A DNA stretch of 58,241 nucleotides, the filler included, from Stramenopiles sp. TOSAG23-2 (lineage: Eukaryota): the NCBI GenBank assembly GCA_900128395.1. It is 6 parts of 6 records of this genome, joined end to end, with 100 filler letters (N's around TTAATTAATTAA, not from the genome) between each part and the next. Parts side by side here need not be neighbours in the genome. Positions count along the whole stretch, not along the records: positions 38,943 to 48,559 come from LT650094.1; 5 more parts are not named here. One strand, written 5' to 3'. Positions within the stretch are counted from its first letter, which is position 1. Every line of letters begins with the position of its first letter. Under the pieces are notes generated by a model, which had not been told where the DNA came from, did not search any database, and saw only the letters and a list, made by a program, of their open reading frames with translations. Shown piece after piece: positions 3,487 through 56,789 of the stretch. Position numbers and translations under genes: made by a program.

Positions 3487-4812
3487 TCATTTCTTCTTTA
3501 AACTAGCAACTAACTCATTAAATCTAGCAATACATTCATTACGTGTACGTGTACTAACAATTGAAGCAATTTTATCCCATCGATCGTTTTTATCCATAGC
3601 TTTTGGTACTGTACGTAAACCATGTTCCAATCGTTTCTGTTCAATTTCAGTCCATGGTTTTGTTTTCATCATGTTTAAATCATTGTTATTATTTTTATTA
3701 TTATTATTATTTGCTTGCATTTTCACATTATTATTATTATTATTTTTTCGAACGGTTTTCATTTTCAACTTTTTTACCCTTTTCACTACTTGATCTTCAT
3801 CACGTGTAGCAATATAATTACTTATACAACCCCAGCGATTTGGTGTTCCACTAGGAAATTTTTTCATGCCTTTTATTAACAATGCATTTTCCTCCGCTGA
3901 CCAATCGCCATGATTTATACCAAATTTACCACGTGCTCGGTTGTTTATACCTTTTGAATTATTCATATTTATTTTTCGTAATTTTTCTTCCAATTTTCTT
4001 TTCTCCTCTTCCGCACCAGGTGGGGCATCAACACTCCAAGTATTTTCAGCCTCTTTTTGTTTTTGTAACCTTGCTTGTTCTTCTTGTCGTTGGCGTTTTT
4101 CTGCTTTTGTTTTTTCTTTCTTTTTACGTTGAATTGCCAATTTTTCTTTTTCCTCCTCGGAAAGTTCAATTGGCTTTGCATTTTTCGATGCAACTGCATC
4201 TATTGCAGCTTGTTTTTTTGCTTGTTCTTTTCTAATTTTACTTAAATATTTATCACGTATATTCATAATAAAAGGATAGGCACCACCAATAACAATAGTA
4301 AAAACGATGGCCCAATTTAAAGGTGTATCTTCTACACCGGTTCCATGTCGATTAAATGCATCTTGAAAGTTTCTAAATCCACCACTTCCATCATCATAAT
4401 TACCTTCATCATATTCTTGACGCTTTTCCTCATCAGATAATACTTCATATGCATTTGCTAATTCAATAAATTTTTCTTCCATTTCTTTTTTTTTATCTTC
4501 CGGATGTTTATCTGGATGCTATATATTTACATTAAGAGTTAGAAAAACAGTTATTAAAGGGAATTAATATGGTTATATATATATATATATATATAGCCAT
4601 TGCTAACTTACAAATTGTCTGGCTAATTTTCTATATGCACGTTTAATTTCTCTATCAGTTGCTGATTTTTCAATTCCTAAAGTTTTATAAAAATCTGGAT
4701 ATGCAATAGAAGCACCTTTTACTAATTGTATTTCATTATTAAATGATATGAAAAATAAAGGAACAAAAATAGAAAAAATAAAGAAACGTAATCTTTGGAA
4801 ATGATTGTTCAT
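3487..4812 (-). CDS. DNAJC1/ERdj1-like protein (signal peptide, J domain, TM segment, two SANT/Myb domains); 2 exons, 410 aa
   Basis: Exon 1 is 4812-4612 and exon 2 is 4518-3487. The GTAAGT...CTAAC...TAG intron (4611-4519, 93 nt) splices to give LARQF|HPDK. TM segment WAIVFTIVIGGAYPFIM; SANT motifs WSAEENALL and WTEIEQKRLE. Confidence 0.9.
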
Positions 4813-4923
4813 AATAAAATATCTAATTGTATTTCATTATTAAATGATATGAAAAATAAAGGAACAAAAATAGAAAAAATAAAGAAACGTAATCTTTGGA
4901 AATGATTGTTCATAATAAAATAT
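4722..4923. repeat. Exact 101-bp tandem duplication spanning the DnaJ start codon
   Basis: 4722-4822 is identical to 4823-4923. Confidence 0.95.
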
Positions 4924-5462: not shown

Positions 5463-6675
5463 ATGCCTGTGACAAAAAAAAACAAATTATATATTGTCCA
5501 TCAACCACCAAAATCAGGTGAGCAAGGAACTATATTATTAAAAGGAGCTGATTTGAGAATAGAAGATGGAATATCCAATAGATATATTCGTATAAAAAAA
5601 ATTATATATTGTCCATCAACCACCAAAATCAGGTGAGCAAGGAACTATATTATTAAAAGGAGCTGATTTGAGAATAGAAGATGGAATATCCAATAGATAT
5701 ATTCGTATAAAAAGAACTATGGAAAAAATTAAGAAGTCTATTGTCCCTATTGTCAAAGCACCACAGCCAACATCAATGGAGGCAAAAACAACCCTAGCAT
5801 CGCCAATGCCTGAAGTTGCTACTAGAAAGTCTTTACGTAATGCAGAAGAAAGAAGCAACAACGAAGTAGCAATAAACGAAACAAAAGATAATAATAATAA
5901 AACACAACCTGGGATGACTAAGAAAAGAAAAAGGGTTACAAACTTTAACCCCAACCAATTGAAGGGGGCGAATACTATGAAGGGATGGATATTACAAGAT
6001 TATTTCCATGAAACGGAAAAGCAATTTAATATAGTGAAGTTATTGCCAGCAAAAGTTATCAATTTTAATCCACCTACGATAAGAAAATATGATAAATTCA
6101 AATTTGGTATAAAATCTGCAACTTCACGTATTGCAAGTACATTTGAAGAGATATTGAAAAAAATAAAAGATGCTCTAGATGTCAAGGAAGTGCAATATGG
6201 TTTATCATGGTTAGAGGCTGTGACATTTGAAATATTTTCTACTATTGATGAAATATTTAAAATTCATTCGCCATTCGCTTGCGCTGTATTGAATGGGTTA
6301 ATGTATACATGGGAACGTGTATTTGAAATAGGATCAATGATTTGGGATGTAAATAGGCAACCAAAATTTACAAAAGGTGGTGATATTAATTGGAAAAAAT
6401 CAAACCACCAGAGAAATTTGTTATATTTACGATTTTCAGATAATAACCTTGCAGTAAAGCCTGAATATATAGATATGTTCCGTGTATGGTATTCACAAGC
6501 TTTTTATACATTGCAAGCAATGGTTTGGCGTTGTCATATTCAAAATAAGAATGATAATAATGATAATAGTAGTTCCAGTAATGGCACCAATTCTGTTGAT
6601 AAAAATGCTATGAAAGACGACTGTATAAATAAGTTGGTAGAGACTGTGACAAAAGTGAAGGCAATGAAACCATGA
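5463..6675 (+). CDS. Hypothetical protein (~365 aa after collapsing the 5' duplication)
   Basis: The ATG at 5463 (MPVTKKNKLYIVHQPP...) is in frame with the 5668-6675 ORF once one 115-bp copy is removed. No family recognised. Confidence 0.7.
5484..5713. repeat. Exact 115-bp tandem duplication just after the start codon
   Basis: 5484-5598 is identical to 5599-5713. Confidence 0.95.
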
Positions 6676-6807
6676 AATTAAATTTTTTTATGGTAATGGC
6701 ACCAATTCTGTTGATAAAAATGCTATGAAAGACGACTGTATAAATAAGTTGGTAGAGACTGTGACAAAAGTGAAGGCAATGAAACCATGAAATTAAATTT
6801 TTTTATG
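6578..6807. repeat. Exact 115-bp tandem duplication spanning the stop codon
   Basis: 6578-6692 is identical to 6693-6807. Confidence 0.95.
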
Positions 6808-7865: not shown

Positions 7866-9451
7866 TTACTTTTTTTTACCACCACCATCACTACCGCCTT
7901 TTCCTCGCAATTTATTGTAAATTTCTAATCGTTGTGAAGCATCAATTACTTGTCCTTTTCGCTGAACTTTATATGCAGCTGGTGGGTTGTTTTTCAAAGC
8001 ATTTTGTGCTGCTATCAATAATTTCTTCGTTTCATTAAATATTTTTTTCATTGGAATAGCTTTAACTTTTTTCTTTCTCAAAGATAATTTAGAAAAAACT
8101 TTACCAAAATCTAATGCATTTCTAATCGTTGTGAAGCATCAATTACTTGTCCTTTTCGCTGAACTTTATATGCAGCTGGTGGGTTGTTTTTCAAAGCATT
8201 TTGTGCTGCTATCAATAATTTCTTCGTTTCATTAAATATTTTTTTCATTGGAATCGCTTTAACTTTTTTCTTTCTTAAAGATAATTTAGAAAAAACTTTA
8301 CCAAAATCTAATGCATTAAATGTCGTCGCTGCATTATCTGGTGCTTGACTAACACAAACAAATACAGCAGTAAGCGCTTCACCTGTCAAGGATTGACTTA
8401 ATAACATGACAAGGTCAAACATATAGTTGCGAAAGGAAAATTTATGTTTAGATCTTCTAGATTTAACTAAATCACGCACTGCACATCCCAACATGGTTAA
8501 TGAATAATTCACTAACATTCCTTGAAATGAAGTTTGAGTCGCACGGTAATCTGAATCCCCGTGTGCATCTTTCATTTTCTCACTACCAGCTAAATCTACG
8601 AATTGAAACCTGGAAGTAGATAAAGTATCATCATTTGGATTGTAACAATACAATTTCAAGACGACAAAGCAATGGGATCTGCTACTATATTGATTTAATC
8701 CTGTCCCTACCGTACATCTTTCTGCAATTCCACTAAAGAAACGAAATAAATCTTTATCATTTTCTAATTGCAATTCCTCCATACCAAACATTTGTGCTGG
8801 TTTTGATACTCTATCAATGCAAACACCATATTGTGTTGCTCTTCCCATTAAGTTACCCAACCCCGGATCAGTATGTTTCTTATTAAGCATATCTTGATTA
8901 CCAAGCATCATGCTCAGTTCAATAGCATTTGCAGTTAAAATATATTTCTTACTTCCTGATGATGATAATTGTTTAAAACGAGAAAAAATTTCCAATGCGG
9001 CACGAGGGAAAATGCCATAGTCTTTGCAAATGGACGTACCATAATCTCCGCGTCCAGCGCGTTCCATTATCCCTGGCGTACCGAACATTGTATGTGTCTT
9101 TCCTGTTCCAGTTTGCCCATACGCCATCACATTAACGTTATACCCATCCAAAAATGCATCTATTCGTCTGGGCAAAAAAAAATTATACAAAGCTTCATTA
9201 TCTGTTTCAGGTGGAATCACATGATTCATATAATCAAAACTTTTTCCATTTATTTTCCCAGCAACAATATCAATTCTCCCACCACCACCATCTCCATTTT
9301 TTACAGCGCTTTGATATCGAAGTGCTGCTTGGCCATCCTGCATACCAAAACCAGATTTTTCTACTCCGCCGCCACCAGCTCCTATAGGTTTTACACGAAC
9401 AATTGCGAGGCCACCATCATCGTCTTCCGTTAGTTGTTTTCTTTTGGACAT
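7866..9451 (-). CDS. Divergent kinesin motor protein with short tail (~462 aa after collapsing the 3' duplication)
   Basis: P-loop AYGQTGTGKTHTM, switch I SSRSH, switch II FVDLAGSE. The true C-terminus RLEIYNKLRGKGGSDGGGKKK* is restored by removing one 197-bp copy. Confidence 0.93.
7921..8314. repeat. 197-bp tandem duplication at the kinesin 3' end with two synonymous differences
   Basis: 7921-8117 vs 8118-8314 differ at GCT/GCG (Ala) and TTG/TTA (Leu) in the kinesin frame. Confidence 0.93.
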
Positions 9452-9604
9452 TATATATTATTGGGCACGACCTGCATACCAAAACCAGATTTTTCTACTC
9501 CGCCGCCACCAGCTCCTATAGGTTTTACACGAACAATTGCGAGGCCACCATCATCGTCTTCCGTTAGTTGTTTTCTTTTGGACATTATATATTATTGGGC
9601 ACGA
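9337..9604. repeat. Exact 134-bp tandem duplication spanning the kinesin start codon
   Basis: 9337-9470 is identical to 9471-9604. Confidence 0.95.
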
Positions 9605-9651: not shown

Positions 9652-9751
9652 NNNNNNNNNNNNNNNNNNNNNNNNNNNNNNNNNNNNNNNNNNNNTTAAT
9701 TAATTAANNNNNNNNNNNNNNNNNNNNNNNNNNNNNNNNNNNNNNNNNNNN
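9652..9751. other. Artificial contig linker
   Basis: 44 N + TTAATTAATTAA (stops in all six frames) + 44 N. Confidence 0.99.
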
Positions 9752-19389: not shown

Positions 19390-19489
19390 NNNNNNNNNNN
19401 NNNNNNNNNNNNNNNNNNNNNNNNNNNNNNNNNTTAATTAATTAANNNNNNNNNNNNNNNNNNNNNNNNNNNNNNNNNNNNNNNNNNNN
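19390..19489. other. Artificial contig linker
   Basis: Same 100-nt N/TTAATTAATTAA/N spacer. Confidence 0.99.
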
Positions 19490-29117: not shown

Positions 29118-29217
29118 NNNNNNNNNNNNNNNNNNNNNNNNNNNNNNNNNNNNNNNNNNNNTTAATTAATTAANNNNNNNNNNNNNNNNNNNNNNNNNNN
29201 NNNNNNNNNNNNNNNNN
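29118..29217. other. Artificial contig linker
   Basis: Same 100-nt spacer. Confidence 0.99.
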
Positions 29218-38842: not shown

Positions 38843-38942
38843 NNNNNNNNNNNNNNNNNNNNNNNNNNNNNNNNNNNNNNNNNNNNTTAATTAATTAANN
38901 NNNNNNNNNNNNNNNNNNNNNNNNNNNNNNNNNNNNNNNNNN
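38843..38942. other. Artificial contig linker
   Basis: Same 100-nt spacer. Confidence 0.99.
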
Positions 38943-40100: not shown

Positions 40101-40754
40101 CGTTATTAATTATTCGCGCCGTTTGTGTGTATATATATATTTTCCGTTGTTTATTATTATTACGTATACTTCTATAAAAACTTGGAGAGAATATAAAAAA
40201 TCAGATATATATATATTTTCAAATAAGTATGTATAAAAAAAGATATCTATCCACGAAACTGTCGTCTCGGAGTGATGTTGCGAGTCGCACATTCTGTCAT
40301 TCTCCCTGTTGTGATGTGCTGATAGATCCGGGAGATCAGATAAGCAGACCAGCTGATCAAATGAAAGAAACAAAATCCCTTAAGAATCCAAATCCATTTT
40401 TCTGATTTTATAAAAATTCGGTAAATATATCATTAGGATCATAGTTGAACTTTAAGTATAATTATATTAGTCTTTGTTACTTTGAATATGTGCGCTGTCC
40501 AACACAAATAAAAATGGTATAAAAAATAATTAATAATATAATCCATAAATTTTTTAATCTAAAAAAGAATATAAATGATCTCCACGATTTACGTATAGGA
40601 GATATAGAGATATAAATACTTATATGGTATGTGATGTGAATATCAGATATTGGATATTTCATTGTATATAATCCATTTTATCTTCGTTTATTTTCTTCCA
40701 ATTATATACACCACAAGTGCACGAATCGATACTATCGGAGTGGATAATAATTCA

Positions 40755-43700
40755 ATGGAACAAAATGATAAAAATAATGATGTGGAAATGCCACTATTAA
40801 ATGAAACACAATCAACAATAAATAATAATAATAATAATAATAATAATGATAAAAATAATAATAATAAAGCAATTGATGCAGTGTTTTGGAAGCGTACGAA
40901 AGTTTTGATTAAACTTGGATTCAAAAGTTGGACCAGCTATGCATCAATAAGGATTTATGTTTTTTCCGTTATATTGATAGTTTCGTCCTATGTTAATTTT
41001 ATCATGGCTATTTCCATTATGTCTGAATTTTATTCACCATTGTTAAAATGTGATTTAGAAACCTATTGGTCTAACCTATCCATTTTTATGTTGAAATACA
41101 TTGTCCTTGTCATATTTAAAGTTCTTGTTGGGTATTATGGCGCTAAATTAAGATTAGAATGGAGGACGGAAATTGTATCAAATTTACAATATACAATATG
41201 TTCTCAACGAAATCTTGCAAATTATTTAATCAACATTCAACATTCTGTGGATAATGTAGACCAAAGAGTTGCGGAGGATGTGGAAGTATCTACAGTTTTT
41301 TTATGGCAATTTTTATTTGGAAATACAACTAGTAAAGGTTTAATTGAAAGTATTAGCGACGTTGTGATAGCAATCATTGCATTATTTAATCTTGGTTTTG
41401 TTTATTTCATCTTGGTATTATCTTACAATGTATTATTTTTAATTATAAATTTTATCATTATGAGGCCAATCGTAAAATTACAATTTGCGCAGCAAGTATT
41501 AGAAGGTATTTTTCGTTACGTCCATCTTCGTATTCGTGAATTCAGTGAAAGTATTACATTTTATCGTGGTGTTGGTATTGAAAAGAAAACATCGGATGAT
41601 GCCTTCAAAAAGCTATACGTAAATCAGAAGAAGTTTATAAATAGGCAAGCAATAGTGCAGCTAGTTCGTCAATATTTTACATTGTTTAATCCAATATTTT
41701 GCTTTGGCATGATTGTATTTGTACCATCTCCAAATTCTTCTGGTACACTTAGTGGAGGTGGTTTCTCACAAACATCTATTATATTTTCCACATTACAAAG
41801 CTCAATTACCCCGATCATCAATATAGTAGCATTGTCTTCGCAAATAGCACAGATTGCTGGGACAGTGCATCGAGTTGGGGATCTGATTGAAAAAATAAAC
41901 AATGCTATTGGACTTTTGAAAATAAATGAAGAAAGGCAACGTCCAATAACTGCTGTTCACCGAGAAATAACAGATGAGGAAGTGAATAATAATGAAATTC
42001 AAGTAATAAATGTATCTTGTAAATTGCCGTCTGAGAATGGTAATGAGAATAGAACACTGTTTGATGATTTGACTTTTAATGTAAAAGCAGGTGAACCGAC
42101 AATAATTGTTGGTCCAAGCGGATCGGGAAAGACTAGTTTGCTTCGTATTTTAGGTGGCTTATGGCCAACAAAAGGCAGTGGCACAATAAAAAAACCAAAT
42201 AAAATTGGATACAATGGTATCTTTTTTTTGCCGCAAAGGCCATATTTATCATTGTCAACATTAAGAGAGCAATTTATTTATCCACATACGATTAAAGATA
42301 TTGCTAATGGTGTTGATGCGTTGGACAAGAAATTGTACAAATATTTGCAATTGTTGCATTTAGATCATTTATTAGATGATTATAGTTTTGATTCGATTGA
42401 AAATTGGTCTGATATTTTCAGTGGAGGTGAACAACAACGTGTTGGTTTTGTCCGAGTTTTCTATCATCGTCCAAAATTTTGTATCATGGATGAAGCAACA
42501 TCAGCATTAGATGTCGACTTAGAGACTGTATGCATGAATGCATGTCATCAATTTAATGTCACATGCATATCTGTTGGGCATAGATCTACATTAACAAAAT
42601 TTCATGTACAAGAATTAAGATTACATGGTGATGGTAATTATTCTGTGAAAAATCTAACAAGCTCGCCAGATAAAGTATATTTATCATCTTCAAATACTAC
42701 TACTACTGAAAATATTTTCGAGGATGATGATGATGATAGTAACAATAATTCAAATGTAGATCATAAAAAATGGAGGACAAAGATTCCATCAAATACTATC
42801 AATTCGCTTGTCTCTACTATAAATAATAATGCCACATGCGCCACACGTATGAGTGAAGTGAAAGTAATTTGGTCACGACTTTTACATTTATTATATATTG
42901 GCTTTTCAGGATTTCGAAGCATGCAAACATTTAAGATTATTCTTGCAATTATCTTCCAAATCGGGTTTGTATATTCTAATACACATTTTGTATTGCAATA
43001 TTTTAATCCAACAATATTGTCTGAAATTTCCGCCTCAAATGGAAATTCAGCCAGCAATATTTTGCTATACATGATAGTTGTTATTATCATGGGAATTTTT
43101 TTCATCTTATCTCAATGGTTACCAAAACGTGTTGGTTTAGAATGGAGGCGTCGTTTAGTGAATTATTTACATGCAAAATACCTCAAGTTAACTAACGTAT
43201 ATGCAATGAACCACTTGCAAACTGACGTTGATAATATTGATCAACGCATAGCAACCGATGTGAAACAATTTGCAGCATCAATGAAATCATCTGATTTTAT
43301 GGATAACATATTTGGTTATGGAGGGTTATTGGGTACGTTAATAAATTTAATTGTTGCTATTGCAGTTGGTAATTTATCCTTTACAATAATTTCAATGACA
43401 TTGTTATACGCTTCGATTACCATGATTGCAATGGGGTATTTCATGATTAAAGTTGCAAAAGCAAAATATACATTAAGCAAAAACGAAGGAGATTTTAGGC
43501 GATCGATTGCGCGAAGTTATGAATTTGCTGAAAGTATTGCTTTTTTTGGTGGGGAAATGGCTGAGTATGAAAGCGGTCAATTTGAATATGGAAAATTAGT
43601 TAAAGTGTATGAAAGATTCATAGAAGTTGATTATCAATTACAAGCTTTGCGAGCACTTACTGGGACGTTGTCCATCGTAATCAGTTCAGCGTTTTATGTT

Positions 43701-44663
43701 ATTTTTGTTGTCGGTCCAAATTGTGATCCAAGTACATTAACGTTGTTTGGATTGATGGGTGGCAATGCTATAGTTCAACAATTGATCACTAGTGTTGTTA
43801 GTATTCCAACATCGATATCAAAATTTTCATCTACAATCGGTAATTTAAATAGAATTAGCATCTTAGATGAAGCATTACAATCATTAAAAGGTAATAATAA
43901 TAATAATAATGGTGGTAACAACGATATGGATGGAAACGAGAATGATCGTGGATTTATGAATACGAGGAATGGAGGCGGGGAGACAATTGCTAATGAAAAT
44001 GCTATAATTGTCTCAAATGTTTCTTGTAAAATACCATTTGGAACAAAACAATTATTTTCCGATTTAGATTTTCAAGTTAATGAATCTGATTCGTTAATTG
44101 TTATGGGACCTAGTGGTAGTGGTAAAACAAGTTTAGTGCGATTATTAGGTGGTTTATGGCCATTTCAATCTGGAACCATTAGTAAACCGCAGAAAATTGG
44201 AAAGGATGGGCTTTTCTTTTTACCACAAAGACCTTACTTAGCATTAGGGACGTTACGAGCACAATTGATATATCCAGATCAAGAACAAGAGAAAGGTAGA
44301 TATAACGATACAGAATTGAGAGAATTATTAACCTTGGTAAAAATGGGTCATTTGCTAGTTGATGGTGATGGTTTGGATAACATAGCACCATGGTCTGATA
44401 TTTTAAGTGGTGGGGAGCAACAACGTATAGGTTTTGTACGTTTATTTTATCATCGTCCAAAATTTTGTATCATGGATGAAGCAACTGCTGCGCTTGATGA
44501 AGAAAGTGAACGGATATGCATGACACAATGTAAATCTCGAGGTATTTCTTTTATCAGTGTTGGTCATCGCTTAAGTTTGATAAAATATCATACCAAAAAA
44601 ATAACATTAAAATTAAATCAGGGGCCTGATGGTGGTAGTACATACGAAATTGAAGATATTTAG
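40755..44663 (+). CDS. Full-size ABC transporter, subfamily D (TMD-NBD-TMD-NBD)
   Basis: Each motif occurs twice: DN.DQR.A.DV, EG.FR ... ESI.F..G, GPSGSGKTSL.R.LGGLWP, FLPQRPY, SGGEQQR.GF.R.FYHRP...DEAT, SVGHR. The first ATG is at 40755 (the ORF track begins at TTG 40650). Confidence 0.95.
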   Translation: MEQNDKNNDVEMPLLNETQSTINNNNNNNNNDKNNNNKAIDAVFWKRTKVLIKLGFKSWTSYASIRIYVFSVILIVSSYVNFIMAISIMSEFYSPLLKCDLETYWSNLSIFMLKYIVLVIFKVLVGYYGAKLRLEWRTEIVSNLQYTICSQRNLANYLINIQHSVDNVDQRVAEDVEVSTVFLWQFLFGNTTSKGLIESISDVVIAIIALFNLGFVYFILVLSYNVLFLIINFIIMRPIVKLQFAQQVLEGIFRYVHLRIREFSESITFYRGVGIEKKTSDDAFKKLYVNQKKFINRQAIVQLVRQYFTLFNPIFCFGMIVFVPSPNSSGTLSGGGFSQTSIIFSTLQSSITPIINIVALSSQIAQIAGTVHRVGDLIEKINNAIGLLKINEERQRPITAVHREITDEEVNNNEIQVINVSCKLPSENGNENRTLFDDLTFNVKAGEPTIIVGPSGSGKTSLLRILGGLWPTKGSGTIKKPNKIGYNGIFFLPQRPYLSLSTLREQFIYPHTIKDIANGVDALDKKLYKYLQLLHLDHLLDDYSFDSIENWSDIFSGGEQQRVGFVRVFYHRPKFCIMDEATSALDVDLETVCMNACHQFNVTCISVGHRSTLTKFHVQELRLHGDGNYSVKNLTSSPDKVYLSSSNTTTTENIFEDDDDDSNNNSNVDHKKWRTKIPSNTINSLVSTINNNATCATRMSEVKVIWSRLLHLLYIGFSGFRSMQTFKIILAIIFQIGFVYSNTHFVLQYFNPTILSEISASNGNSASNILLYMIVVIIMGIFFILSQWLPKRVGLEWRRRLVNYLHAKYLKLTNVYAMNHLQTDVDNIDQRIATDVKQFAASMKSSDFMDNIFGYGGLLGTLINLIVAIAVGNLSFTIISMTLLYASITMIAMGYFMIKVAKAKYTLSKNEGDFRRSIARSYEFAESIAFFGGEMAEYESGQFEYGKLVKVYERFIEVDYQLQALRALTGTLSIVISSAFYVIFVVGPNCDPSTLTLFGLMGGNAIVQQLITSVVSIPTSISKFSSTIGNLNRISILDEALQSLKGNNNNNNGGNNDMDGNENDRGFMNTRNGGGETIANENAIIVSNVSCKIPFGTKQLFSDLDFQVNESDSLIVMGPSGSGKTSLVRLLGGLWPFQSGTISKPQKIGKDGLFFLPQRPYLALGTLRAQLIYPDQEQEKGRYNDTELRELLTLVKMGHLLVDGDGLDNIAPWSDILSGGEQQRIGFVRLFYHRPKFCIMDEATAALDEESERICMTQCKSRGISFISVGHRLSLIKYHTKKITLKLNQGPDGGSTYEIEDI

Positions 44664-44873
44664 GAAGGGAGGGGGTATATCACACTTTTAATACGTTCGT
44701 AAAAAATATTTTTTAATTTTTTTTAAAAAAAGTTTTTTTTTTAAATATTTTTATACAGTTCGTACGAAGCTTCGTACATCTCACACATGTGAATCATACT
44801 GCTGCTGTATTTTATCACCCTCTTGTCTATCTATACTATCTCGCACAATTGTCTTTATCACACGCACCCAGAT

Positions 44874-46316
44874 CTAACTTTTCTTCTTCAATTGATTTGT
44901 TACTATACTAATAATATCTTGAAGATACATGATATTATTATTATATAAAAGATTCAATGCAACTTTGTATTGCAATTCATCTTTCACACCTTCACTATTT
45001 TTAATTTGATCTAAATCAAATTTATGAAGTTTTTCTAATTTTTCTTTCAGTTCTTTTTGATATTTCATCATATATTCATTGCTTTGATTACCACCAGTTT
45101 CAATTAATATTGCTTCATATTTCATGACTTCATATGAAAAAATAATTTGTTTTTTGGTTATTCTTAAGCTTTTTTGAACTTCATTTAGATAAGTTGCATT
45201 GATTATCCAATCCAATGGCAACGGCATAGAGTCGCTATCGCTGTTGTTACTACTATTTTTACTACTTGCAAAGGTAAAAAAATTCTTTTTTTTACAAGCA
45301 ATTATATCATTTACTTGACGCATACGGGTCAATACATTGGATGGATCTTCAAATGTCAATTCAAACATATCCTCGCTTTCAACATCTTTTGTAACTTGTT
45401 CCAATAATTTTGATCCATGGCCTTGTCGTTGATTTGTTGGTAAAGTTACAATTTGGCAAACTCGTAATGCTTTTTGTCTCTCTTTTCGAAATGGATTTGT
45501 AAATTCAAGTGCAGTCATATATGCAACGAATTTACGAGTATAATTATTCGTAGTAGTAGTGCTATCATTATTTGGACCAGCTGAAGAAGATGTTAATAAT
45601 TGATATGTTGTATATACTCTCCAACGATGATCATCTAAATCAACTGGAGATGCACCATCAATTAAGTATAATGCCAATGTTTCCAATCGCTCATGTTGGT
45701 CTTTTTCTTCTTTAGATTCAGAAGGAAGAGAACGATATACTTCGAATGTACCAAATTTATTTGAAAATGTTTCTACTTTAACACCAGGTGGAACATGCGA
45801 GCAGCCGTTCAATTCAGTTGTCAATTGTTGGCGAAAAATTTCTTTGTTTTTAGTATAACCAGGTGGCAATCCATACTCTGCATTTAATTTTGCTTCTGGC
45901 GTATCTTTCTCTGGATCTGCTCCAATCGCTAATAAACGATCATCAAATGACATTTGAAAAAAACTATTTGCACCACTAGGTGTATAAAACAAACGAAGTT
46001 TTAAATTTTTAAAACCAACAATTGTTTCACTATCACCAAAAAATTGATGTGTAAATTCAGGTACAAAAGATTGAACGACACCTTCATCATCTTCATCATC
46101 TGAATCATCTTCATTATTGAGATCGTTTAAATTTGTTAAAAATTTTATCCTCATCACATTATTTGCTTTGCAAATGTATTCAGAACCATCCGTCTCTACT
46201 TCATGCATTTCCATTCTCTGTTTTTTCCTTGGAGGTTGAAATACATTTGAACTATTATTACTATTATTATTATTGTTCATTTTATAATTATTATTTTCTT
46301 GCAACGGAGCGATCAT
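44874..46316 (-). CDS. HAT1: Histone acetyltransferase type B catalytic subunit (start uncertain)
   Basis: F.PEFTHQFFGDSETIVGFKNLKL, IDGASPVDLDD..W, RVCQIVTLP..QRQGHGSKLL, ELTFEDPS. Confidence 0.9.
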   Translation of the reverse strand: MIAPLQENNNYKMNNNNNSNNSSNVFQPPRKKQRMEMHEVETDGSEYICKANNVMRIKFLTNLNDLNNEDDSDDEDDEGVVQSFVPEFTHQFFGDSETIVGFKNLKLRLFYTPSGANSFFQMSFDDRLLAIGADPEKDTPEAKLNAEYGLPPGYTKNKEIFRQQLTTELNGCSHVPPGVKVETFSNKFGTFEVYRSLPSESKEEKDQHERLETLALYLIDGASPVDLDDHRWRVYTTYQLLTSSSAGPNNDSTTTTNNYTRKFVAYMTALEFTNPFRKERQKALRVCQIVTLPTNQRQGHGSKLLEQVTKDVESEDMFELTFEDPSNVLTRMRQVNDIIACKKKNFFTFASSKNSSNNSDSDSMPLPLDWIINATYLNEVQKSLRITKKQIIFSYEVMKYEAILIETGGNQSNEYMMKYQKELKEKLEKLHKFDLDQIKNSEGVKDELQYKVALNLLYNNNIMYLQDIISIVTNQLKKKS

Positions 46317-46727
46317 CTGTTTGTACCACGCTGGGGGGGGGAGTAGGGGGATATTCAATTTGATTCCTAATCTAGGGATTATGTGAATATCTTTGTAATG
46401 GAATATATGTTGATGTTGATGATTATATTTTGTGTGTGGATGGATTGGTTTTTGATTTTTGTTTTTTTTATTATGTTTTTTTACTTATATGTATGCCTGG
46501 TATTAATATTGGCTATAATGATACTGTGGCTTAAGCCAGGATTAATTATTTGAAATTCAAAAAAAAATTAGTATATTAATAGCATAGGAATAGCTTCATA
46601 TCAGTTGAAGAGTACTAAGGAGGGTTCAAATACATATATCATGGCCTGCATCGCATTGCACAATTTGCATAATATTGCTAATACATATGCCGCTTGTAAA
46701 AAAAAAATAAAAATTTTGTTAGTATTT

Positions 46728-47366
46728 TTAATGTAGTGTGCTAGTGGAGGAAAGTAAATATATATATATAAGAATGTAATACTTACACTCTTCAACCGTG
46801 ACATCCACATCAGGGATGTCAGCGCGGTTGTTTAAATACACTGCAACCGCCGCTCGGAGGCCGCCGCGACTTGCATTTCTGCATGCAAGCGTTATCTTGT
46901 GCAATATTTGAGCTGTGGCATTGTTATCATCGGCGATATGAACAATGGCACCATCTACAAATTTCATAGATGATGCCCAGGGGTGCCATTTAGATATTCT
47001 TACAATTATAATATATATGAATGCATCAGATTGCATTGGTGTATGCATGACATGGATCAATGCCAGAAACTCTGCTAATTCATTTACAAATCCATATTCT
47101 TTTTATGAATCCATATTCTTTGTCGTTTGAGCCAATTGATTATACACAGAGCAAGTAGCATTTTTTGTGGTTGAACATTTGTACAATTGTTTAAATAATG
47201 GCAATGTTTTGAACACTATATGCTGAATTTGTTTATTGCTCTTTTTTGCTGTCTGTTTTAAAATGTTATTTGCTTTTTTTTTGATTACATGAAAAGTATA
47301 ATCTACTTTGTTGCATAATGGGTGAACGATCTCCGTTGGTGTAATTATCTTTCCTAGCCTTGGCAT
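46728..47366 (-). pseudogene. Interrupted ORF of unknown family directly downstream of the structured element
   Basis: ORFs 47103-47366 and 46728-47060 are in the same frame, separated by one TAA (47103-47105) inside a 19-nt imperfect duplication (AAAGAATATGGATT twice). A GTAAGT...TAG intron-like segment lies at ~46786-46741. Confidence 0.4.
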
Positions 47367-47409
47367 AAAGCCTATTTTTCGAGAAATAAAGTATATATAA
47401 TTTAAATTT

Positions 47410-48348
47410 TAAACGTCGGCTATTATTAGGCGACTACGACTCGACTCTCCAACTCTTATATATTAGTCCTGATACCATGGAAGACTCGTTGTAAACCAAC
47501 TAAACTGAAAACGAGTCAGTTCTCCATCCATCAATAGGCCTATTGGATCCCAATCTACGCATTCTACACCACTAGATTTTTCACCTCACCATTCATCATA
47601 CCAGGCTGCTCATCAAACTCTCCAACCAAAATATTCAAAGCACGTTCCGATATAGATTACTCTACTATATCTACAAAGAACAAATTGCTACTGTTGATGT
47701 ATCTCCCAGACTGTACATCAGCCTCCGTATGCCATTCAAGGTGGCACTTAGGAAACCACGCGTGACCCAGTCCTTAGCGACTCCACAGGCACTTTCGACC
47801 TGATCGTTGCCGACGGTCTACCCCCCGGATCAGGGTATTGACCGTTTTCACACGCATTGCCCTAGTTCATTTTACAAAACAGTAACCCCCCCCGTCGGGG
47901 CGGTCTTGAATCCACGATAAATCATATCTTCAAGGGACTATACATTCTTACCACCACGAGTCTTTTCTAAAAGGGTCCTCGGAAACCTTGCTTTCCTCAC
48001 CTGGACTATTTGCTCCATTTTGCGGTTTTCACCTCCCAAAAAATAGTCAAATTTTGGTTGGAGTAAAGCTCGCGGAATTAAATGAGTGTTACCACCTCAC
48101 GAATGCATATCAAACAATTGAACCATAAAATACTGCAAGTAAAAGTCAACATAATGAGATCGTCCGACATCTTATCCCAGCGTCCCCAGCATTTATGTAC
48201 GGGAGTATATACATCTAAACTTATGAGGCCCGTGCACTCAAAAGTCGAAGTCCGCCTTATGCATTCGGACAATTACAGCAGAATATATTATGAGTCACTT
48301 TCAAAATCTAGCAATTTTTCGTCATACCGATTATACGTGTGACCGCAC
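47410..48348 (-). ncRNA. Large structured RNA-like element (ribozyme-like architecture; class unassigned)
   Basis: GC-enriched and lacking a long ORF. Long-range helices 48303-48311/47572-47580 and 48051-48063/47620-47632, at least four GNRA-capped stems, CCUAAG...UACGG receptor at 47725-47752, and GUGCG at 48348-48344. Confidence 0.6.
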
Positions 48349-48559
48349 AAATAGATATATTATATATAAAAAATTATTATAACTTAGATTTTAACCAATA
48401 TTTATATATAAAAATATCATTCCACCATTAATATAAAGATATATATATATATATATAATTATAATATTTAAAAATAATTTATAAAAAAAAATATAAAATA
48501 TATGTGTGTGTGTATTTGTAAATTTATGTGCGTTGTACACACACACGCACGTCTCTCTG

Positions 48560-48659
48560 NNNNNNNNNNNNNNNNNNNNNNNNNNNNNNNNNNNNNNNNN
48601 NNNTTAATTAATTAANNNNNNNNNNNNNNNNNNNNNNNNNNNNNNNNNNNNNNNNNNNN
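48560..48659. other. Artificial contig linker
   Basis: Same 100-nt spacer. Confidence 0.99.
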
Positions 48660-49208
48660 ATAGCAGGCAATAAGCTTAGGATTGATTTTAGGCTTATTCA
48701 CCTGTTAGAGCTAACTTTTGATGTTTCTGTGTGCCTAAATCTTCTAGATTTATTAATAATAATACCTGCTGGTAGTCGTCTACCATAGGTATAATAATTT
48801 CAATAATATAGCCCAATAATAATAAATATAATACATTTCCCATAGTATAGTAAATAGTGTTATTAATTTGTTCCCTTCCTCAATTTCCACCTCAACCATT
48901 TCTAGCCAAGCATTTCGTGATTTTTTTATATTTTGAAGCCACAATAAAACACATACATATTATTTAATATATGTAAACATAGCTACAGCTGTGGAGAGAA
49001 ACAATCAAACATATTTAATATCACATCTCGTAGTTATATATATATATAGGAGAAACATTTTTTATACACAGAGACACTTTATATATATACATACATAGTT
49101 TATAGGATATAAGAGGAGAAAAAAAAGAGAGAAAATTACTAAAATATAATAATTATATAAATTATAAATTTGCAGTAAAAAGACAATATAATCTATTTTT
49201 CATCGAAA

Positions 49209-52200
49209 ATGTCGACGAAAAAAAAAGTAGATTCCAGAGTACGTACATTAATTGAAAATGCTGTGAAATCACAACATCGATCGTTATTTGTTATAGTTGG
49301 TGATCATGGTAAAGATCAAGTAGTGAATTTACATTACGTATTATCAAAATCACAAGTAAAAAGTAAACCAACTGCGTTATGGTGCTATAAAAAAGATTTA
49401 GGATTTTCTACACATCGGAAAAAAAGAATGAATCAAATTAAAAAAGCAATGGCACGTGGTTTATATGATCCAAACAAAGAAGATCCATTTGAACTTTTTA
49501 TCACTTCGACGCAAATTCGTTGGTGTTATTATAAAGATACGAAAAAAATTCTTGGTAGTACATATGGAATGGTTGTTTTGCAAGATTTCGAAGCATTGAC
49601 ACCGAATTTACTTGCAAGAACTATTGAAACAGTTGAAGGTGGTGGAATAATCATTTTATTACTTCGAACGATGAATTCTTTAAAACAACTTTATTCCATG
49701 TCAATGGATGTTCATACACGTTTTCGTACTGGTGCATATGGGGATATTGTCCCTCGATTTAATGAACGATTTATTTTATCATTAGGCTCCGTGAAAAATT
49801 GTTTGTTATTAGATGATAAATTAAATATTTTACCATTATCAAAACATGCAAAAAATATTGTTCCAATTGCTGGTTCATTAGGTAAAGTTAATGTGGAAGA
49901 TTCCGCTCCATTAAAAGAATTAAAAGAATCCTTAGCAGAAACTCAACCAATTGGTGCATTAGTAGAAACTGCTAGAACAATGGATCAAGCAAAAGCGATC
50001 ATGACATTTGTTGAAGCAATCTCAGAGAAAACGTTACGCAGTACGGTTTCATTGACTGCCGCTAGAGGACGTGGTAAATCTGCTTCCATGGGATTAGCTA
50101 TTGCAGCTGCTGTAGCATATGGTTATAGTAATATTTTCATTACTTCCCCAAGTCCAGAAAATTTAAATACAGTTTTTGATTTTGTTTTCAAAGGATTTGA
50201 TGCATTGAAATACAAAGATCATTTAGATTACGAAGCCATTCAAAGTACTAATCCAGATTTCAATAAAGCGATTGTACGAATCAATATCTTTCGTGATCAT
50301 AGGCAAACGATACAATATATTGATCCATCTGATTCAGATCGTTTAGGACAAGCTGAATTATTAGTTATTGATGAAGCAGCTGCAATACCTTTACCATATG
50401 TTCGTAAATTGCTTGGAAATTATCTAGTTTTCATGTCTAGTACCATTAATGGTTATGAAGGAACAGGAAGATCTTTATCGTTAAAATTGTTATCTCAATT
50501 AAGAAAAAACCAACATTCTTCAACAAGTAGTAGTAATAGCAATAATAAAAAGAATAAACACAAACAATTAAATGAACATCGTGTATTGCGTGAAGTAACA
50601 TTGGATGTACCAATACGATATGCAGAACATGATCCAATTGAAAGTTGGTTAAATGATTTGTTATGTTTAGATTCTACAAAATCATCATATCGTATTGTTA
50701 GTGGCATACCACATCCATCTAAATGCGAATTGTTCCATGTAAATAGAGATTCTTTGTTTTCATATCATAAAGTTTCTGAAGCGTTTTTACAACGAATGAT
50801 GGCATTGTATGTTTCATCTCATTATAAAAATACACCGAATGATTTGCAAATGATGTGTGATGCGCCTGCACATGAATTATTTGTTTTATTAGGACCAAAT
50901 GCCGGAAGCAATGGTTCTTTGCCTGATATATTGTGTGTATTGCAAGTATGTAAAGAAGGAAAAATATCAAAAGAAGCAATTCGTGCATCATTGGCAAGAG
51001 GAAAAGGTGCGGCTGGAGATTTAATACCATGGGTAATGTCTCAACAATATTTAGATAATAATTTTGGATCTCTTTCAGGTGCACGTGTTGTACGTATTGC
51101 TACACATCCAGATGCAACTGGCATGGGATATGGTTCAAGAGCAATAGAACTTTTAGGAAAATATTATCAAGGTGATATTGTTTCTATAAATGAAAATGAT
51201 TCTTCTGAGAAAAAGAAGAACAAGGAAGAAAAAAACAAAAAAAATAAATCAAGTTCATCCTCTTTAACAGAAGAAAAAATTAAACCACGTAAAAATATGC
51301 CACCATTATTAACACCGTTGGATCAACGTCCACCGGAAAGATTACATTATTTAGGAGTTTCCTATGGTGTGACTACAAAATTATTTAATTTTTGGGGCAA
51401 TGCTGGTTTTGTTCCAGTTTATTTAAGACAAACCACGAATGAATTAACTGGTGAACATTCATGTATTATGTTAAAACCATTAAATACGGAAGATATGGTA
51501 TCTGGTCCTGAAGCAGGATGGTGCAATAATTTTTCCAGTGATTTTGCAAAACGATTTTTATTTTTACTTAGTTCATCCTTTCGTAAATTAGATGTACAAT
51601 TAGCGTTAAGCATGCTTTCAAAGTGTACACCAGCTATATCGATAACTAATGCAAACAAAGAAATTGGTGCAAATGAGTCTTCAATTTCAAAGTTTTCCGC
51701 ATTTTTAGGACCATTAGATGTACAACGACTTGAAGCATATTCAAGAAATTTAGTAGATTATCGTTTAATAACAGATTTAATGCCAATTATGTCACAATTG
51801 TATTTTCTTGGTAAATTCGATGAGTCATTTAAATTGTCAGCTTTGCAAACAGCTATATTAGTAGGTGTTGGTATGCAAAGTCATACTATGGATGCAATTG
51901 CTAGTCAATTAGATTTACCAACTGGTCAATTGCTTGCCATGTTTAATAAAACTGTACGAAAAGTTTCATTGTATTTAAAACGTGTTGAGGAAAATGAAGC
52001 GAAAGAAGAACTTAATAAAATGAATAATGAATTACCAAATGGGAAATCTGCTACAAAGAAGAAGAAGAAGAAGAAAAAAAATACAAATAATAATAATGCG
52101 AAAAATGAGAAGACAAATGATGATGAGGATAATAATAGTAATAATAATGATGAAATGGTTGGTCAAACAGCAGTACCAAAAGAATTTATGCAATATGCGA

Positions 52201-52391
52201 TAAAAGGAAATGATAAAGATTGGGATACAGCTCTTAGTAATCGTGCACAAAATGATTCAGCAAGGAAAAATGTAGTCAGTATACGTAGTAAACGGGATCA
52301 TGAGGACGGTAATGAAGATGCAGAACAAGCAAGAAAGAAACATAAAAAGAGTAGTAGTAAAAAGAAGAAAAAGAAGAAGAAGAAGTATTGA
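49209..52391 (+). CDS. NAT10: RNA cytidine acetyltransferase NAT10/Kre33
   Basis: KKVDSRVRTLIEN, LTAARGRGKSA, LLVIDEAAAIP, STINGYEGTGRSL, SHYKNTPNDLQ, GARVVRIATHP...GMGYG; basic C-terminus. Confidence 0.98.
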   Translation: MSTKKKVDSRVRTLIENAVKSQHRSLFVIVGDHGKDQVVNLHYVLSKSQVKSKPTALWCYKKDLGFSTHRKKRMNQIKKAMARGLYDPNKEDPFELFITSTQIRWCYYKDTKKILGSTYGMVVLQDFEALTPNLLARTIETVEGGGIIILLLRTMNSLKQLYSMSMDVHTRFRTGAYGDIVPRFNERFILSLGSVKNCLLLDDKLNILPLSKHAKNIVPIAGSLGKVNVEDSAPLKELKESLAETQPIGALVETARTMDQAKAIMTFVEAISEKTLRSTVSLTAARGRGKSASMGLAIAAAVAYGYSNIFITSPSPENLNTVFDFVFKGFDALKYKDHLDYEAIQSTNPDFNKAIVRINIFRDHRQTIQYIDPSDSDRLGQAELLVIDEAAAIPLPYVRKLLGNYLVFMSSTINGYEGTGRSLSLKLLSQLRKNQHSSTSSSNSNNKKNKHKQLNEHRVLREVTLDVPIRYAEHDPIESWLNDLLCLDSTKSSYRIVSGIPHPSKCELFHVNRDSLFSYHKVSEAFLQRMMALYVSSHYKNTPNDLQMMCDAPAHELFVLLGPNAGSNGSLPDILCVLQVCKEGKISKEAIRASLARGKGAAGDLIPWVMSQQYLDNNFGSLSGARVVRIATHPDATGMGYGSRAIELLGKYYQGDIVSINENDSSEKKKNKEEKNKKNKSSSSSLTEEKIKPRKNMPPLLTPLDQRPPERLHYLGVSYGVTTKLFNFWGNAGFVPVYLRQTTNELTGEHSCIMLKPLNTEDMVSGPEAGWCNNFSSDFAKRFLFLLSSSFRKLDVQLALSMLSKCTPAISITNANKEIGANESSISKFSAFLGPLDVQRLEAYSRNLVDYRLITDLMPIMSQLYFLGKFDESFKLSALQTAILVGVGMQSHTMDAIASQLDLPTGQLLAMFNKTVRKVSLYLKRVEENEAKEELNKMNNELPNGKSATKKKKKKKKNTNNNNAKNEKTNDDEDNNSNNNDEMVGQTAVPKEFMQYAIKGNDKDWDTALSNRAQNDSARKNVVSIRSKRDHEDGNEDAEQARKKHKKSSSKKKKKKKKKY

Positions 52392-52645: not shown

Positions 52646-54265
52646 TTACTTTTCAAAAAATTTTTCAAAAGACTTTTTTAATTCCAAAAATTGAAGATAT
52701 GGTAATATGTAAGATATTCCCGGCACATATTCGTATATCAAGTAGGCAACTTCACTCCATTCACCTCCGTAAACGCCGCCGTAAACAGGTCTCTTTGGGT
52801 GTCCATTGTAGTGAATAACCATTATTCCGGCGACTTTTCCGTCGTGTTTTCCTCCCTTGTGTATTAATGTGATTTTTTGTTTTCCATGCATCTTATCATC
52901 TTTCCATTCACCCTCATATACGTGATAACTTTCTTCATCTTTAAGATAAGTTCCATCCGAGTAATGCTTACCCTTTACAACTGTCGTAAATTTACCTTTT
53001 CCGTGTTTTTTGTTATCTTTCCATTCACCGACGTATACAAAACCATTTTTACATGTATATGTACCTTGTCCATGTCGTGATATGACAATTCCTACTTTCG
53101 CCATCATACCAACATAAATATCACCATAGGGATAAGTTACGGTGCATTTTCCATCATGCTCACCATTCTCGTACTTCCATTTACCTTCAATTGTTGTACC
53201 ATCAGTCAAAATGAATTTACCTTCTCCTTGTTGCTTGCTATCTTTCCATCCACCAACATATACAGAGCCATCAGGATATGTCATTTTCCCGTGTCCATCA
53301 TGATTGCCATTTTTATAGTCGCCATCATATACACCACCATCAGGATATTTATCTGTACCTTTTCCATCACGGTAATCATCTTTCCATTCACCATCGTATA
53401 CACCACCATCAGCCCATGTCATTGTACCCTTTCCATCGCGCTTGCCATCTTTCCATTCACCATCGTGTACATCACCATTAGCAAATGTACATGTACCCTT
53501 TCCATGTGTCTTATTATCTTTCCATTCACCATCGTATACATCGCCATTAGGAAATTTATATATACCATTTCCATCGCGATTGTTATCTTTCCATTCACCA
53601 TCGTATACATCGCCATTAGGAAATGTACATGTACCCTTTCCATCAGACTTGTTATCTTTCCATTCACCATCGTATACACCGCCATCAGAAAATTTATATG
53701 TACCCTTCCCATATTTCTTACCACCTTTAAACTCACCTACGTATTCAGCGCCATTTGACAGAGTCAATGTCCCCTTTCCGTGGAATTTATCGTCTTTAAA
53801 ATATCCAATATACACAATGGCCCCAAACATAACCGTCAGTTTGCCATACCCGTCTTTTTCCCCATCTTCGTTATACCTGCCGTCGTATGTACCGAATTGA
53901 TTCAAAAAGAAATTCCAACGATACCGCTTCCATGCATTCCAAGAGACTTTTAGACCGTCTTTCAACTCACCCAGGTAGACGTCTTTCTCACAAATTTTGC
54001 TCGCAATAGAAGTTGTATCTATTTTTTTTGTACTATATTTCTCTAACGATTCAATAGGTGATTCTGAGTTTGAGGATGATGCAAAAAGCGGTGCATTTGT
54101 TATTGAAAAATTATTGAATTTGTTTCTGAATTGTCCATTGTTGAAACATTTATAATTCTTTACATTGCCATTATCAGTATTTTTTTTTTGAATTGAATCT
54201 AACAGATACATACCAGCACAAGCTGTTGATGGAACAATCGTTTTTCTCGTTAACATACGAAACAT
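52646..54265 (-). CDS. MORN-repeat protein with possible mitochondrial presequence
   Basis: More than ten 23-aa Y.GEWKD....G.G repeats, visible as 69-bp DNA repeats at ~53320-53700; basic N-terminus MFRMLTRKTIVPS. Confidence 0.92.
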   Translation of the reverse strand: MFRMLTRKTIVPSTACAGMYLLDSIQKKNTDNGNVKNYKCFNNGQFRNKFNNFSITNAPLFASSSNSESPIESLEKYSTKKIDTTSIASKICEKDVYLGELKDGLKVSWNAWKRYRWNFFLNQFGTYDGRYNEDGEKDGYGKLTVMFGAIVYIGYFKDDKFHGKGTLTLSNGAEYVGEFKGGKKYGKGTYKFSDGGVYDGEWKDNKSDGKGTCTFPNGDVYDGEWKDNNRDGNGIYKFPNGDVYDGEWKDNKTHGKGTCTFANGDVHDGEWKDGKRDGKGTMTWADGGVYDGEWKDDYRDGKGTDKYPDGGVYDGDYKNGNHDGHGKMTYPDGSVYVGGWKDSKQQGEGKFILTDGTTIEGKWKYENGEHDGKCTVTYPYGDIYVGMMAKVGIVISRHGQGTYTCKNGFVYVGEWKDNKKHGKGKFTTVVKGKHYSDGTYLKDEESYHVYEGEWKDDKMHGKQKITLIHKGGKHDGKVAGIMVIHYNGHPKRPVYGGVYGGEWSEVAYLIYEYVPGISYILPYLQFLELKKSFEKFFEK

Positions 54266-56473: not shown

Positions 56474-56789
56474 TCACATCATCCCTATTGCAGCTTCACG
56501 ACTAATAATACCTTGTGATACCAATGCTTGTAAATCTGGTGTTAATTGCACATCATTTCCATTATTAGTATTCACATTCGTTGTACCAGAGCCACCATGT
56601 TGCATTTGTTGTAGTTGTTGTGCAACTGGTATCACATCATCCCTATTGCAGCTTCACGACTAATAATACCTTGTGATACCAATGCTTGTAAATCTGGTGT
56701 TAATTGCACATCATTTCCATTATTAGTATTCACATTCGTTGTACCAGAGCCACCATGTTGCATTTGTTGTAGTTGTTGTGCAACTGGTA
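56474..56789. repeat. Exact 158-bp tandem duplication whose boundary is the stop codon
   Basis: 56474-56631 is identical to 56632-56789; each copy begins with TCA (TGA on the minus strand). Confidence 0.95.

Follow-up and report, generated by a model that had tools for sequence, protein, structure and literature searches.

A GC-rich, transcribed non-coding island near the end of an AT-rich contig from an uncultured marine protist

Genes and features of the window

The window, that is, the whole stretch of 58,241 nt that was analyzed, consists of six contigs of a fragmentary assembly placed in descending order of length (9651, 9638, 9628, 9625, 9617, and 9582 nt) and separated by five artificial spacers. 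Adjacency across the spacers is meaningless, and because the contigs are joined in this way, NAT10 is not a neighbor of the island described below (Table 1). More generally, a stitched multi-contig window can suggest false neighbors. The island is located near the end of the fifth contig (38943–48559), together with HAT1 and a fused, full-size ABCD-type transporter of 1337 aa, in which two ABC_membrane_2 and two ABC_tran domains occupy a single ORF. The sequence context is eukaryotic, gene-dense, and 32% GC. Relatives of HAT1 were retrieved at 98, 71, 67, 65, and 51% identity, and their sources are all marine metagenomes or single cells, which indicates that the host is a marine protist that is uncultured but has several relatives with sequence data.

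Table 1. Features discussed in the text, with positions counted along the 58,241-nt window.
Feature	Position	Strand	Remarks
Artificial spacers, N44-TTAATTAATTAA-N44, five copies	9652–9751, 19390–19489, 29118–29217, 38843–38942, 48560–48659		Identical
ABCD-type transporter	40650–44663	+	Island's own contig; fused, single ORF
HAT1	44874–46358	−	Island's own contig
Connection between the HAT1 side and the island	46986–47320		No counterpart in contig L002
59-nt piece adjoining the island	47321–47379		Part of another transcript in X1 and X14, where the neighboring sequence differs on both sides
Conserved transcribed non-coding block, as in the window	47380–48352		RNA contigs X1, X6, X14
13-bp inverted repeat, arm 2	47620–47632		No variant listed at partner position 47631
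CCUAAG-hairpin-UACGG, 11-nt GNRA receptor-like	47725–47752	−	One departure from the motif
Stretch best conserved in comparison with P0059	47955–48065		Printed sequences compared by eye
13-bp perfect inverted repeat, arm 1	48051–48063		Carries variant 48052 T>A
Arm of a longer inverted repeat	48272–48301		Partner in the ~110-nt continuation missing from the window
AT-rich flank	48353–48559		GC 0.07–0.20; TG/CA tract at contig end; RNA contigs do not follow
NAT10	49209–52391		Sixth contig
Adjacent direct-repeat pairs	334–557, 4722–4923, 5479–5708, 6578–6807, 7921–8314, 9337–9604, 56474–56789		

The original prediction placed a GC-enriched island without a long ORF at this site, and both properties were confirmed. 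Nowhere in the window is the GC content higher than in the island, which reaches 0.51 in 300-nt windows compared to a mean of 0.32 (sd 0.048) and whose longest stop-free frame measures 86 aa. TAA, TAG, and TGA occur in all six frames of the island, a 3-base periodicity is absent, and no ORF was found under genetic codes 1 or 4. A Pfam search with nine stop-free pieces of the island returned no family above cut-off; two matches fell short of it, at 15.1 bits (cut-off 27) and 13.2 bits (cut-off 27.5). A coding gene or pseudogene was rejected on the basis of the missing ORF under both codes and the missing Pfam family. The minus strand of the island is G-rich (G>C).

Another GC-rich patch, smaller than the island (46700–46950; GC 0.45–0.51), is located immediately upstream of HAT1. 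Its fold z scores were −4.2 and −4.3 on the minus strand and −3.1 and −2.7 on the plus strand, and it contains a weak scaRNA-like match (46861–46936; 16.5 bits, E 2.8); one part of it (46760–46885) differs from L002, a 10.3-kb contig of the same species. Repeats elsewhere in the window comprise seven adjacent direct-repeat pairs of 101–197 nt at 99–100% identity, which may be assembly or amplification artifacts or young minisatellites, and an inverted repeat near the end of the fourth contig (38082–38313; 97 nt, 88% complementary, arms 38 nt apart). The 69-nt DNA periodicity of a MORN-repeat protein with 11 repeats (52646–54265) dominates the repeat list of the window.

Transcripts, full-length unit, and placement of the island

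Transcription was assessed in seawater RNA libraries. In 14 runs from seven studies, comprising rRNA-depleted, cDNA, and polyA-selected libraries, 48–60% of the sampled words of 47000–48559 were present, a share that matches the island's fraction of that interval. Contigs were placed on 44800–48559 (3.76 kb) for three RNA runs from three studies (X1, X6, and X14) and for the organism-labeled run X16; X2–X5, X7–X13, X15, and X17–X20 provided word shares only. X1 yielded a 963-nt contig on 47415–48352 with no differences (938 of 938 positions), X6 a 1000-nt contig on 47379–48352 with six differences, and overlapping pieces from X14 span the same island interval. It should be noted that this RNA evidence consists of assembled contigs, which carry neither strand nor true ends and whose depth is no gauge of expression. 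The identity over 938 positions indicates that the RNA is colinear with the DNA, with neither splicing nor editing, and no spliced form devoid of the entire island was seen among the RNA contigs. Since the flanks are silent in X1 and X6, with 44800–47320 and 48454–48559 uncovered in both runs, DNA carry-over is an unlikely source of the signal. Transcription, the absence of which would have spoken against the predicted RNA, is thus documented by contigs from three studies, and the island displays what is expected of a transcribed non-coding RNA gene: an RNA independent of its neighbors, no ORF, and retention in relatives. No GT-AG splice borders were found at the edges of the adjoining 59-nt piece.

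The RNA contigs of X1, X6, and X14 share a single continuation past 48352 that is unlike the flank in the window and that extends for at least 189 nt in X14. Further information on this side of the island came from gene callers, which translated an accidental frame (48082–48342, plus strand) in many public assemblies, giving rise to 10 protein clusters from ENA, NCBI, JGI, and Logan, one of them with 27 members. P0028, P0033, P0050, and P0052–56 read through 48352 into the common continuation for ~36 codons (~110 nt). Residues 97–106 of P0028 match the opposite strand of 48301–48272 (8 of 10, E 0.001), and this inverted copy in the continuation indicates that the full RNA contains a long hairpin that is truncated in the window. 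In a deletion form (P0034 and P0060), 48261 is joined to the far side of the partner arm; this form may reflect natural variation or may have arisen by a skip during reverse transcription. Among the 25 contigs listed for the 27-member cluster, 15 measure 960–1441 nt and the rest 535–2557 nt, from which a conserved unit of ~1.1 kb was deduced; the longest contig on record (P0033) is 2557 nt. The window holds an incomplete copy, 47380–48352, which lacks ~110 nt at the 48352 side.

The placement of the island beside HAT1 was compared with related loci. L002 is 97.8% identical to the window over 41810–46759 and shares a second block of 100 nt (46886–46985, 95%), and nothing is shared beyond 46985; no island is found beside HAT1 in L002. 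Another contig, L001, ends before the island region, and none of 11 metagenome HAT1 loci carries the island. Conserved synteny of HAT1 and the island was rejected, as it was seen in none of these 11 loci. Two stretches, 46690–47193 and 48454–48559, are uncovered in all four placed runs, which is no proof of absence. The nuclear, AT-flanked placement of the island in this contig is not corroborated, and three readings of it may apply: a chimeric contig end, a low-copy element inserted at various sites, or a polymorphic locus.

The borders of the common sequence bear on these readings. At 47379, the window, X16, and X1/X14 continue differently, and at 48352 the window departs from all others. 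P0037 and P0035 leave the common sequence at 48210 and 48243, respectively, for AT-rich sequence, and beyond the ~110-nt continuation the AT-rich flanks of P0028 and P0052–56 differ from one another. In addition, X16 contains minor contigs that have diverged, one by 7 differences over 125 nt and another by 9 differences and 8 gaps over 143 nt, as well as a variant of the island with a 5-nt insertion. Such a pattern could be produced by a non-autonomous element that is interspersed at low copy number, be it an abundant RNA that was retroposed or a transposon that encodes no protein, in which case the window would hold a truncated insertion, stopping ~110 nt before the common end, and transcription would in part be read-through. 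The absence of the island from L002 and the tendency of most contigs to end near the block borders, as is typical of repeat assemblies, are in line with this possibility, which we nevertheless regard as fairly unlikely. The X16 island pieces have depths of 4.8–10.6 in three of four cases (59 in the fourth), close to the 8.19 of a contig of the nuclear flank; depth is a weak measure, and it suggests a low copy number. High copy number was rejected on these per-contig depths. No second copy was found in the 58-kb window or the 11 related loci, and inspection by eye at 47379 and 48353 revealed no terminal inverted repeat, TG...CA ends, A-tail, or target-site duplication. Some of the flanks counted as different (P0053 with P0056, P0052 with P0055) are alike by eye when frame shifts in TA runs are allowed, and the block-wise conservation relative to P0059 described below suits a gene better than a neutral repeat.

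Another explanation is that the island belongs to a different replicon or locus (an organelle, an episome, a virus, or another site in the nucleus) and was mis-joined to the HAT1 contig, so that its nuclear placement next to HAT1 would be an artifact. Colinearity with L002 stops at 46985, no placed run supports 46690–47193, alternative continuations exist at each of 47321, 47379, and 48352, the contigs of the window contain exact tandem duplications of the kind typical of faulty assembly, and the flanks of the island are far more AT-rich than the other spacers of the window, all of which would be accommodated by such a join. The content of the island, however, offers little to a foreign replicon: there is no signal of rRNA, tRNA, or organelle genes, no ORF under code 4, and no match in two scans of viral contigs, while the depth in X16 is near the nuclear level and no contig on record exceeds 2557 nt. 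We consider a mis-joined origin unlikely.

Conservation, fold statistics, and comparison with known families

Homologues of the island are present in many public assemblies, and differences among the close variants amount to a few per cent. Clear divergence is seen in P0059 and P0062, with 47% identity in the accidental frame over 47920–48336, and in both of them the interval around 47955–48065 is almost fully preserved; a search with a central ORF returned P0060 only. The GGU-GAAA-ACC hairpin and the GACUAUUU/AAAUAGUC stem fall within the stretch best conserved relative to P0059, as do a U6 tract and one of the two arms of the 13-bp repeat. In P0059, the read-through peptide of this stretch is almost unchanged except for a small indel between the stem strands, and later parts diverge.

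The original prediction described a densely structured, ribozyme-like RNA on the minus strand. Its motif strings were found on that strand where it had located them, with the exception of CGAGCU, which was to extend the inner 13-bp helix: the string is present (48072–48067), but it does not directly adjoin the helix, as a 3-nt bulge intervenes. The structural claim itself fared less well. The whole-element minimum free energy (MFE) gave z scores of −0.96 (5 of 20 shuffles equal) and −0.68 (13 of 60) on the minus strand compared to −3.05 (0 of 20) and −2.3 (1 of 60) on the plus strand, so that the better fold score falls on the plus strand. In 150-nt windows, mean z was −0.13 (minus) and −0.44 (plus) within the island and −0.22 and −0.21, respectively, outside it. 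Dense structure is not borne out by minus-strand scores of this size and by local scores equal to those of the flanks; folding no better than shuffles, which the prediction itself had named as evidence against its RNA claim, is what was found for the minus strand.

The individual elements were evaluated against shuffled sequences as well. GNRA-capped stems of at least 3 bp occur five times in the island and 2.75±1.61 times in 1000 shuffles, 14% of which reach five; the stems are present, but as a sign of structure their number is at chance. The proposed outer helix comprises nine Watson-Crick pairs, the commonest length of the longest inverted repeat in shuffles. The UCG-GCAA-CGA stem overlaps CCUGAUC/GAUCAGG by 2 nt, which renders the two mutually exclusive. 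The inner 13-bp perfect helix does exceed chance expectation, a repeat of this length being reached by 1 of 300 shuffles, but it is a minority state: the variant 48052 T>A, present in X6, X14, X16, P0030, and P0059, is the commoner allele, and with 47631 unchanged it breaks the twelfth pair of the helix.

The 11-nt GNRA receptor consists of CCUAAG paired across a helix with UAUGG. The predicted variant of it, CCUAAG-hairpin-UACGG, is present in the island, and a CCUAAG...UAYGG arrangement appears in 1.8% of 3000 shuffles, a post hoc test; the motif differs in the P0060 lineage, where Phe replaces Leu at this position and the minus strand would, by back-translation, read CCUAAA.

Variant sites in the placed runs allowed a search for covariation. 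None of 22 sites has a varying partner, and paired variant sites stay paired in 8 of 14 cases for the minus-strand MFE structure and in 6 of 14 for the plus strand. Hence no compensatory change was seen and neither MFE structure gains support, in a set of sites that is small, drawn from close relatives, and of low power. On the minus strand, G-C becomes G-U through the variant at 48024, one isolated and weak indication in favor of this strand. Taken together with the counts above, these data illustrate that a hand-drawn, GNRA-rich fold can be no better than chance.

Membership in described RNA families was assessed with Rfam (4227 families), which gave nothing at gathering score over the whole window. 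At E≤10, five noise matches were obtained on 46800–48700, the best being mir-297 on the TG tract (27 bits versus 90), and two matches on the island alone (17.7 and 14.8 bits). No small ribozyme, rRNA, RNase P/MRP, SRP, snRNA, or telomerase family was matched on 46800–48700 or on the island, and a tRNA search returned none. Intron_gpII (domain V/VI), group-II-D1D4, and Intron_gpI (P3–P9 core) likewise had no match at E≤10 on either sequence.

The possibility that the island is a portion of a group II-like intron, as the original prediction inferred for its 5′ part, or another self-cleaving or self-splicing ribozyme is largely refuted, and we now find it scarcely credible. Its starting points are real: the GUGCG pentamer at 48348, four GNRA-capped stems, and the receptor-like CCUAAG...UACGG hairpin are present, the last being rare in shuffles in the post hoc test, and the change at 48024 preserves a pair on the minus strand. 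GUGCG, however, does not mark the 5′ end that group II introns would have there. RNA contigs of three studies run through the pentamer, so it is no RNA end, and eight database contigs are also colinear past it. With GUGCG internal to a transcript that is colinear with the DNA, no E≤10 match to domain V/VI, to domains 1–4, to Intron_gpI, or to any small ribozyme family, a GNRA count at chance, and minus-strand z scores of about −0.7 to −1, little is left of a catalytic intron.

Several other identities were pursued. A likeness of the minus strand to SSU rRNA (about positions 515–800) noted by eye was rejected: alignment of the island to E. coli 16S and 23S rRNA gave z scores of −0.6 to +0.1 against 40 shuffles, and neither blastn against E. 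coli genomes nor Rfam produced a match. A telomerase template was rejected, 13 telomere-type motifs being absent from 47300–48450, and a virus was rejected after two exact-pattern scans of viral contigs with no matches. A scan of genome contigs with a 23-mer of the island gave three exact matches, all prokaryotic (L013, 6436–6458; L014, 4206–4228; L015, 3136–3158), within genes that appear tubulin-like, hypothetical, and secretin-like (names assigned by eye from translations), where the 23-mer reads TVGNDQV or, on the opposite strand, DLIVADG. Prokaryotic origin was rejected, since the three genes are unrelated and their agreement with the island is a fortuitous one between GC-rich codons rather than homology.

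A match to a known organellar intron or rRNA, which would have removed the novelty of the predicted element, was thus found neither by Rfam nor by rRNA alignment. The island is neither a group I or group II intron nor an rRNA or organelle fragment, and it belongs to no Rfam family. What holds of the original prediction is its broadest part, a non-coding feature at the RNA level outside the described families: the island is transcribed, has no ORF, and matches nothing in Rfam.

A candidate non-coding RNA locus and its relation to known RNAs

Based on these data, we rate as about even the chances that the island is a genuine, conserved locus of ~1.1 kb for a non-coding RNA, in the AT-rich (32% GC), gene-dense genome of an uncultured marine protist. 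According to this model, a block of ~1.1 kb would be transcribed colinearly with the DNA, unspliced and unedited, and would be kept among related ocean lineages. It stands out by its GC content in the manner of RNA genes in AT-rich genomes, and the copy in the window is incomplete, the missing ~110 nt including one arm of the long hairpin. Counted against the model are the missing thermodynamic and covariation support for a fold on either strand, the strand-less nature of the Logan contigs, the better z score of the plus strand, and the absence of the island beside HAT1 in L002. The several continuations, the X16 minor contigs, and the piece with a depth of 59 are as compatible with a repeat family or assembly chimeras as with a single gene.

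More tentatively, and with less confidence than we place in the locus itself, the product may be a stable RNA that most likely serves as a protein-bound scaffold, with the G-rich minus strand as the sense strand. Its predicted binding platform would be the best-conserved stretch (~47955–48065), with its hairpins and U-rich tract. This proposal draws on the G>C composition, the block-wise conservation, and the occurrence of the RNA in libraries of the polyA-selected as well as the rRNA-depleted type; a motif that would define a function was not found. A more ambitious version posits an undescribed, large (~1.1 kb), conserved, highly expressed non-coding RNA family that would be restricted to an uncultured clade of marine heterotrophic protists, could be detected in metatranscriptomes throughout the ocean, and would have a compact tertiary fold that is possibly catalytic. 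We judge it improbable. If true, a tertiary-folded RNA with the 13-bp helix, GNRA loops, receptor-like motif, and terminal hairpin would be a eukaryotic counterpart of the large structured RNAs of bacteria.

The closest known kind is that of RNA genes that stand out by GC in AT-rich genomes. The island resembles these in a GC peak ~4 sd above background, in the absence of an ORF, and in being transcribed. Base-composition screens such as those of Klein, Schattner, and Larsson reportedly recovered mostly known classes (rRNA, tRNA, snRNA, snoRNA, SRP, and RNase P). In contrast to such finds, the ~1.1-kb island RNA matches none of the 4227 Rfam families. Screens of this type (Klein et al., 2002; Schattner, 2002; Larsson et al., 2008, the last in Dictyostelium) are listed among the references of PMC3150283.

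Resemblance to other systems is partial. With group II introns, the island shares the GUGCG pentamer, GNRA loops, and a receptor-like motif, but it contains no domain V/VI, GUGCG is not a boundary, and no model matches. GOLLD, ROOL, and OLE are large structured non-coding RNAs of bacteria with GNRA/receptor contacts, and all are in Rfam. The island is like them in size class, lack of an ORF, and high expression, and it differs in its eukaryotic, AT-rich context, in the absence of an Rfam match, and in the lack of covariation or energy support for a compact fold. Long snRNAs and telomerase RNAs of the yeast type measure ~1.1–1.3 kb, carry an Sm site, and exist in polyA+ and polyA− forms. Their length, a core U6 tract followed by GG, and the presence in polyA-selected as well as rRNA-depleted libraries are echoed in the island; in contrast to these RNAs, however, no telomere-template repeat was found among the motifs tried, U1, U2, and telomerase are not matched, and the U tract overlaps a proposed stem. 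Finally, like non-autonomous retroposons or solo repeats, the island is non-coding, has common ends with differing flanks, and is represented in the window by a terminally shortened copy, whereas no A-tail, target-site duplication, or terminal repeat was seen and the copy number is apparently low.

Within the accessible part of the literature, no report of such an RNA in marine protists was found. Annotated non-coding RNAs are almost missing for uncultured marine protists, and the island represents a discrete, ~1.1-kb, family-less example. Its RNA is conserved between lineages and was assembled in full from small seawater RNA libraries, and metatranscriptome studies could use it as a marker of the lineage. 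It is also a candidate for the RNA component of a new RNP.
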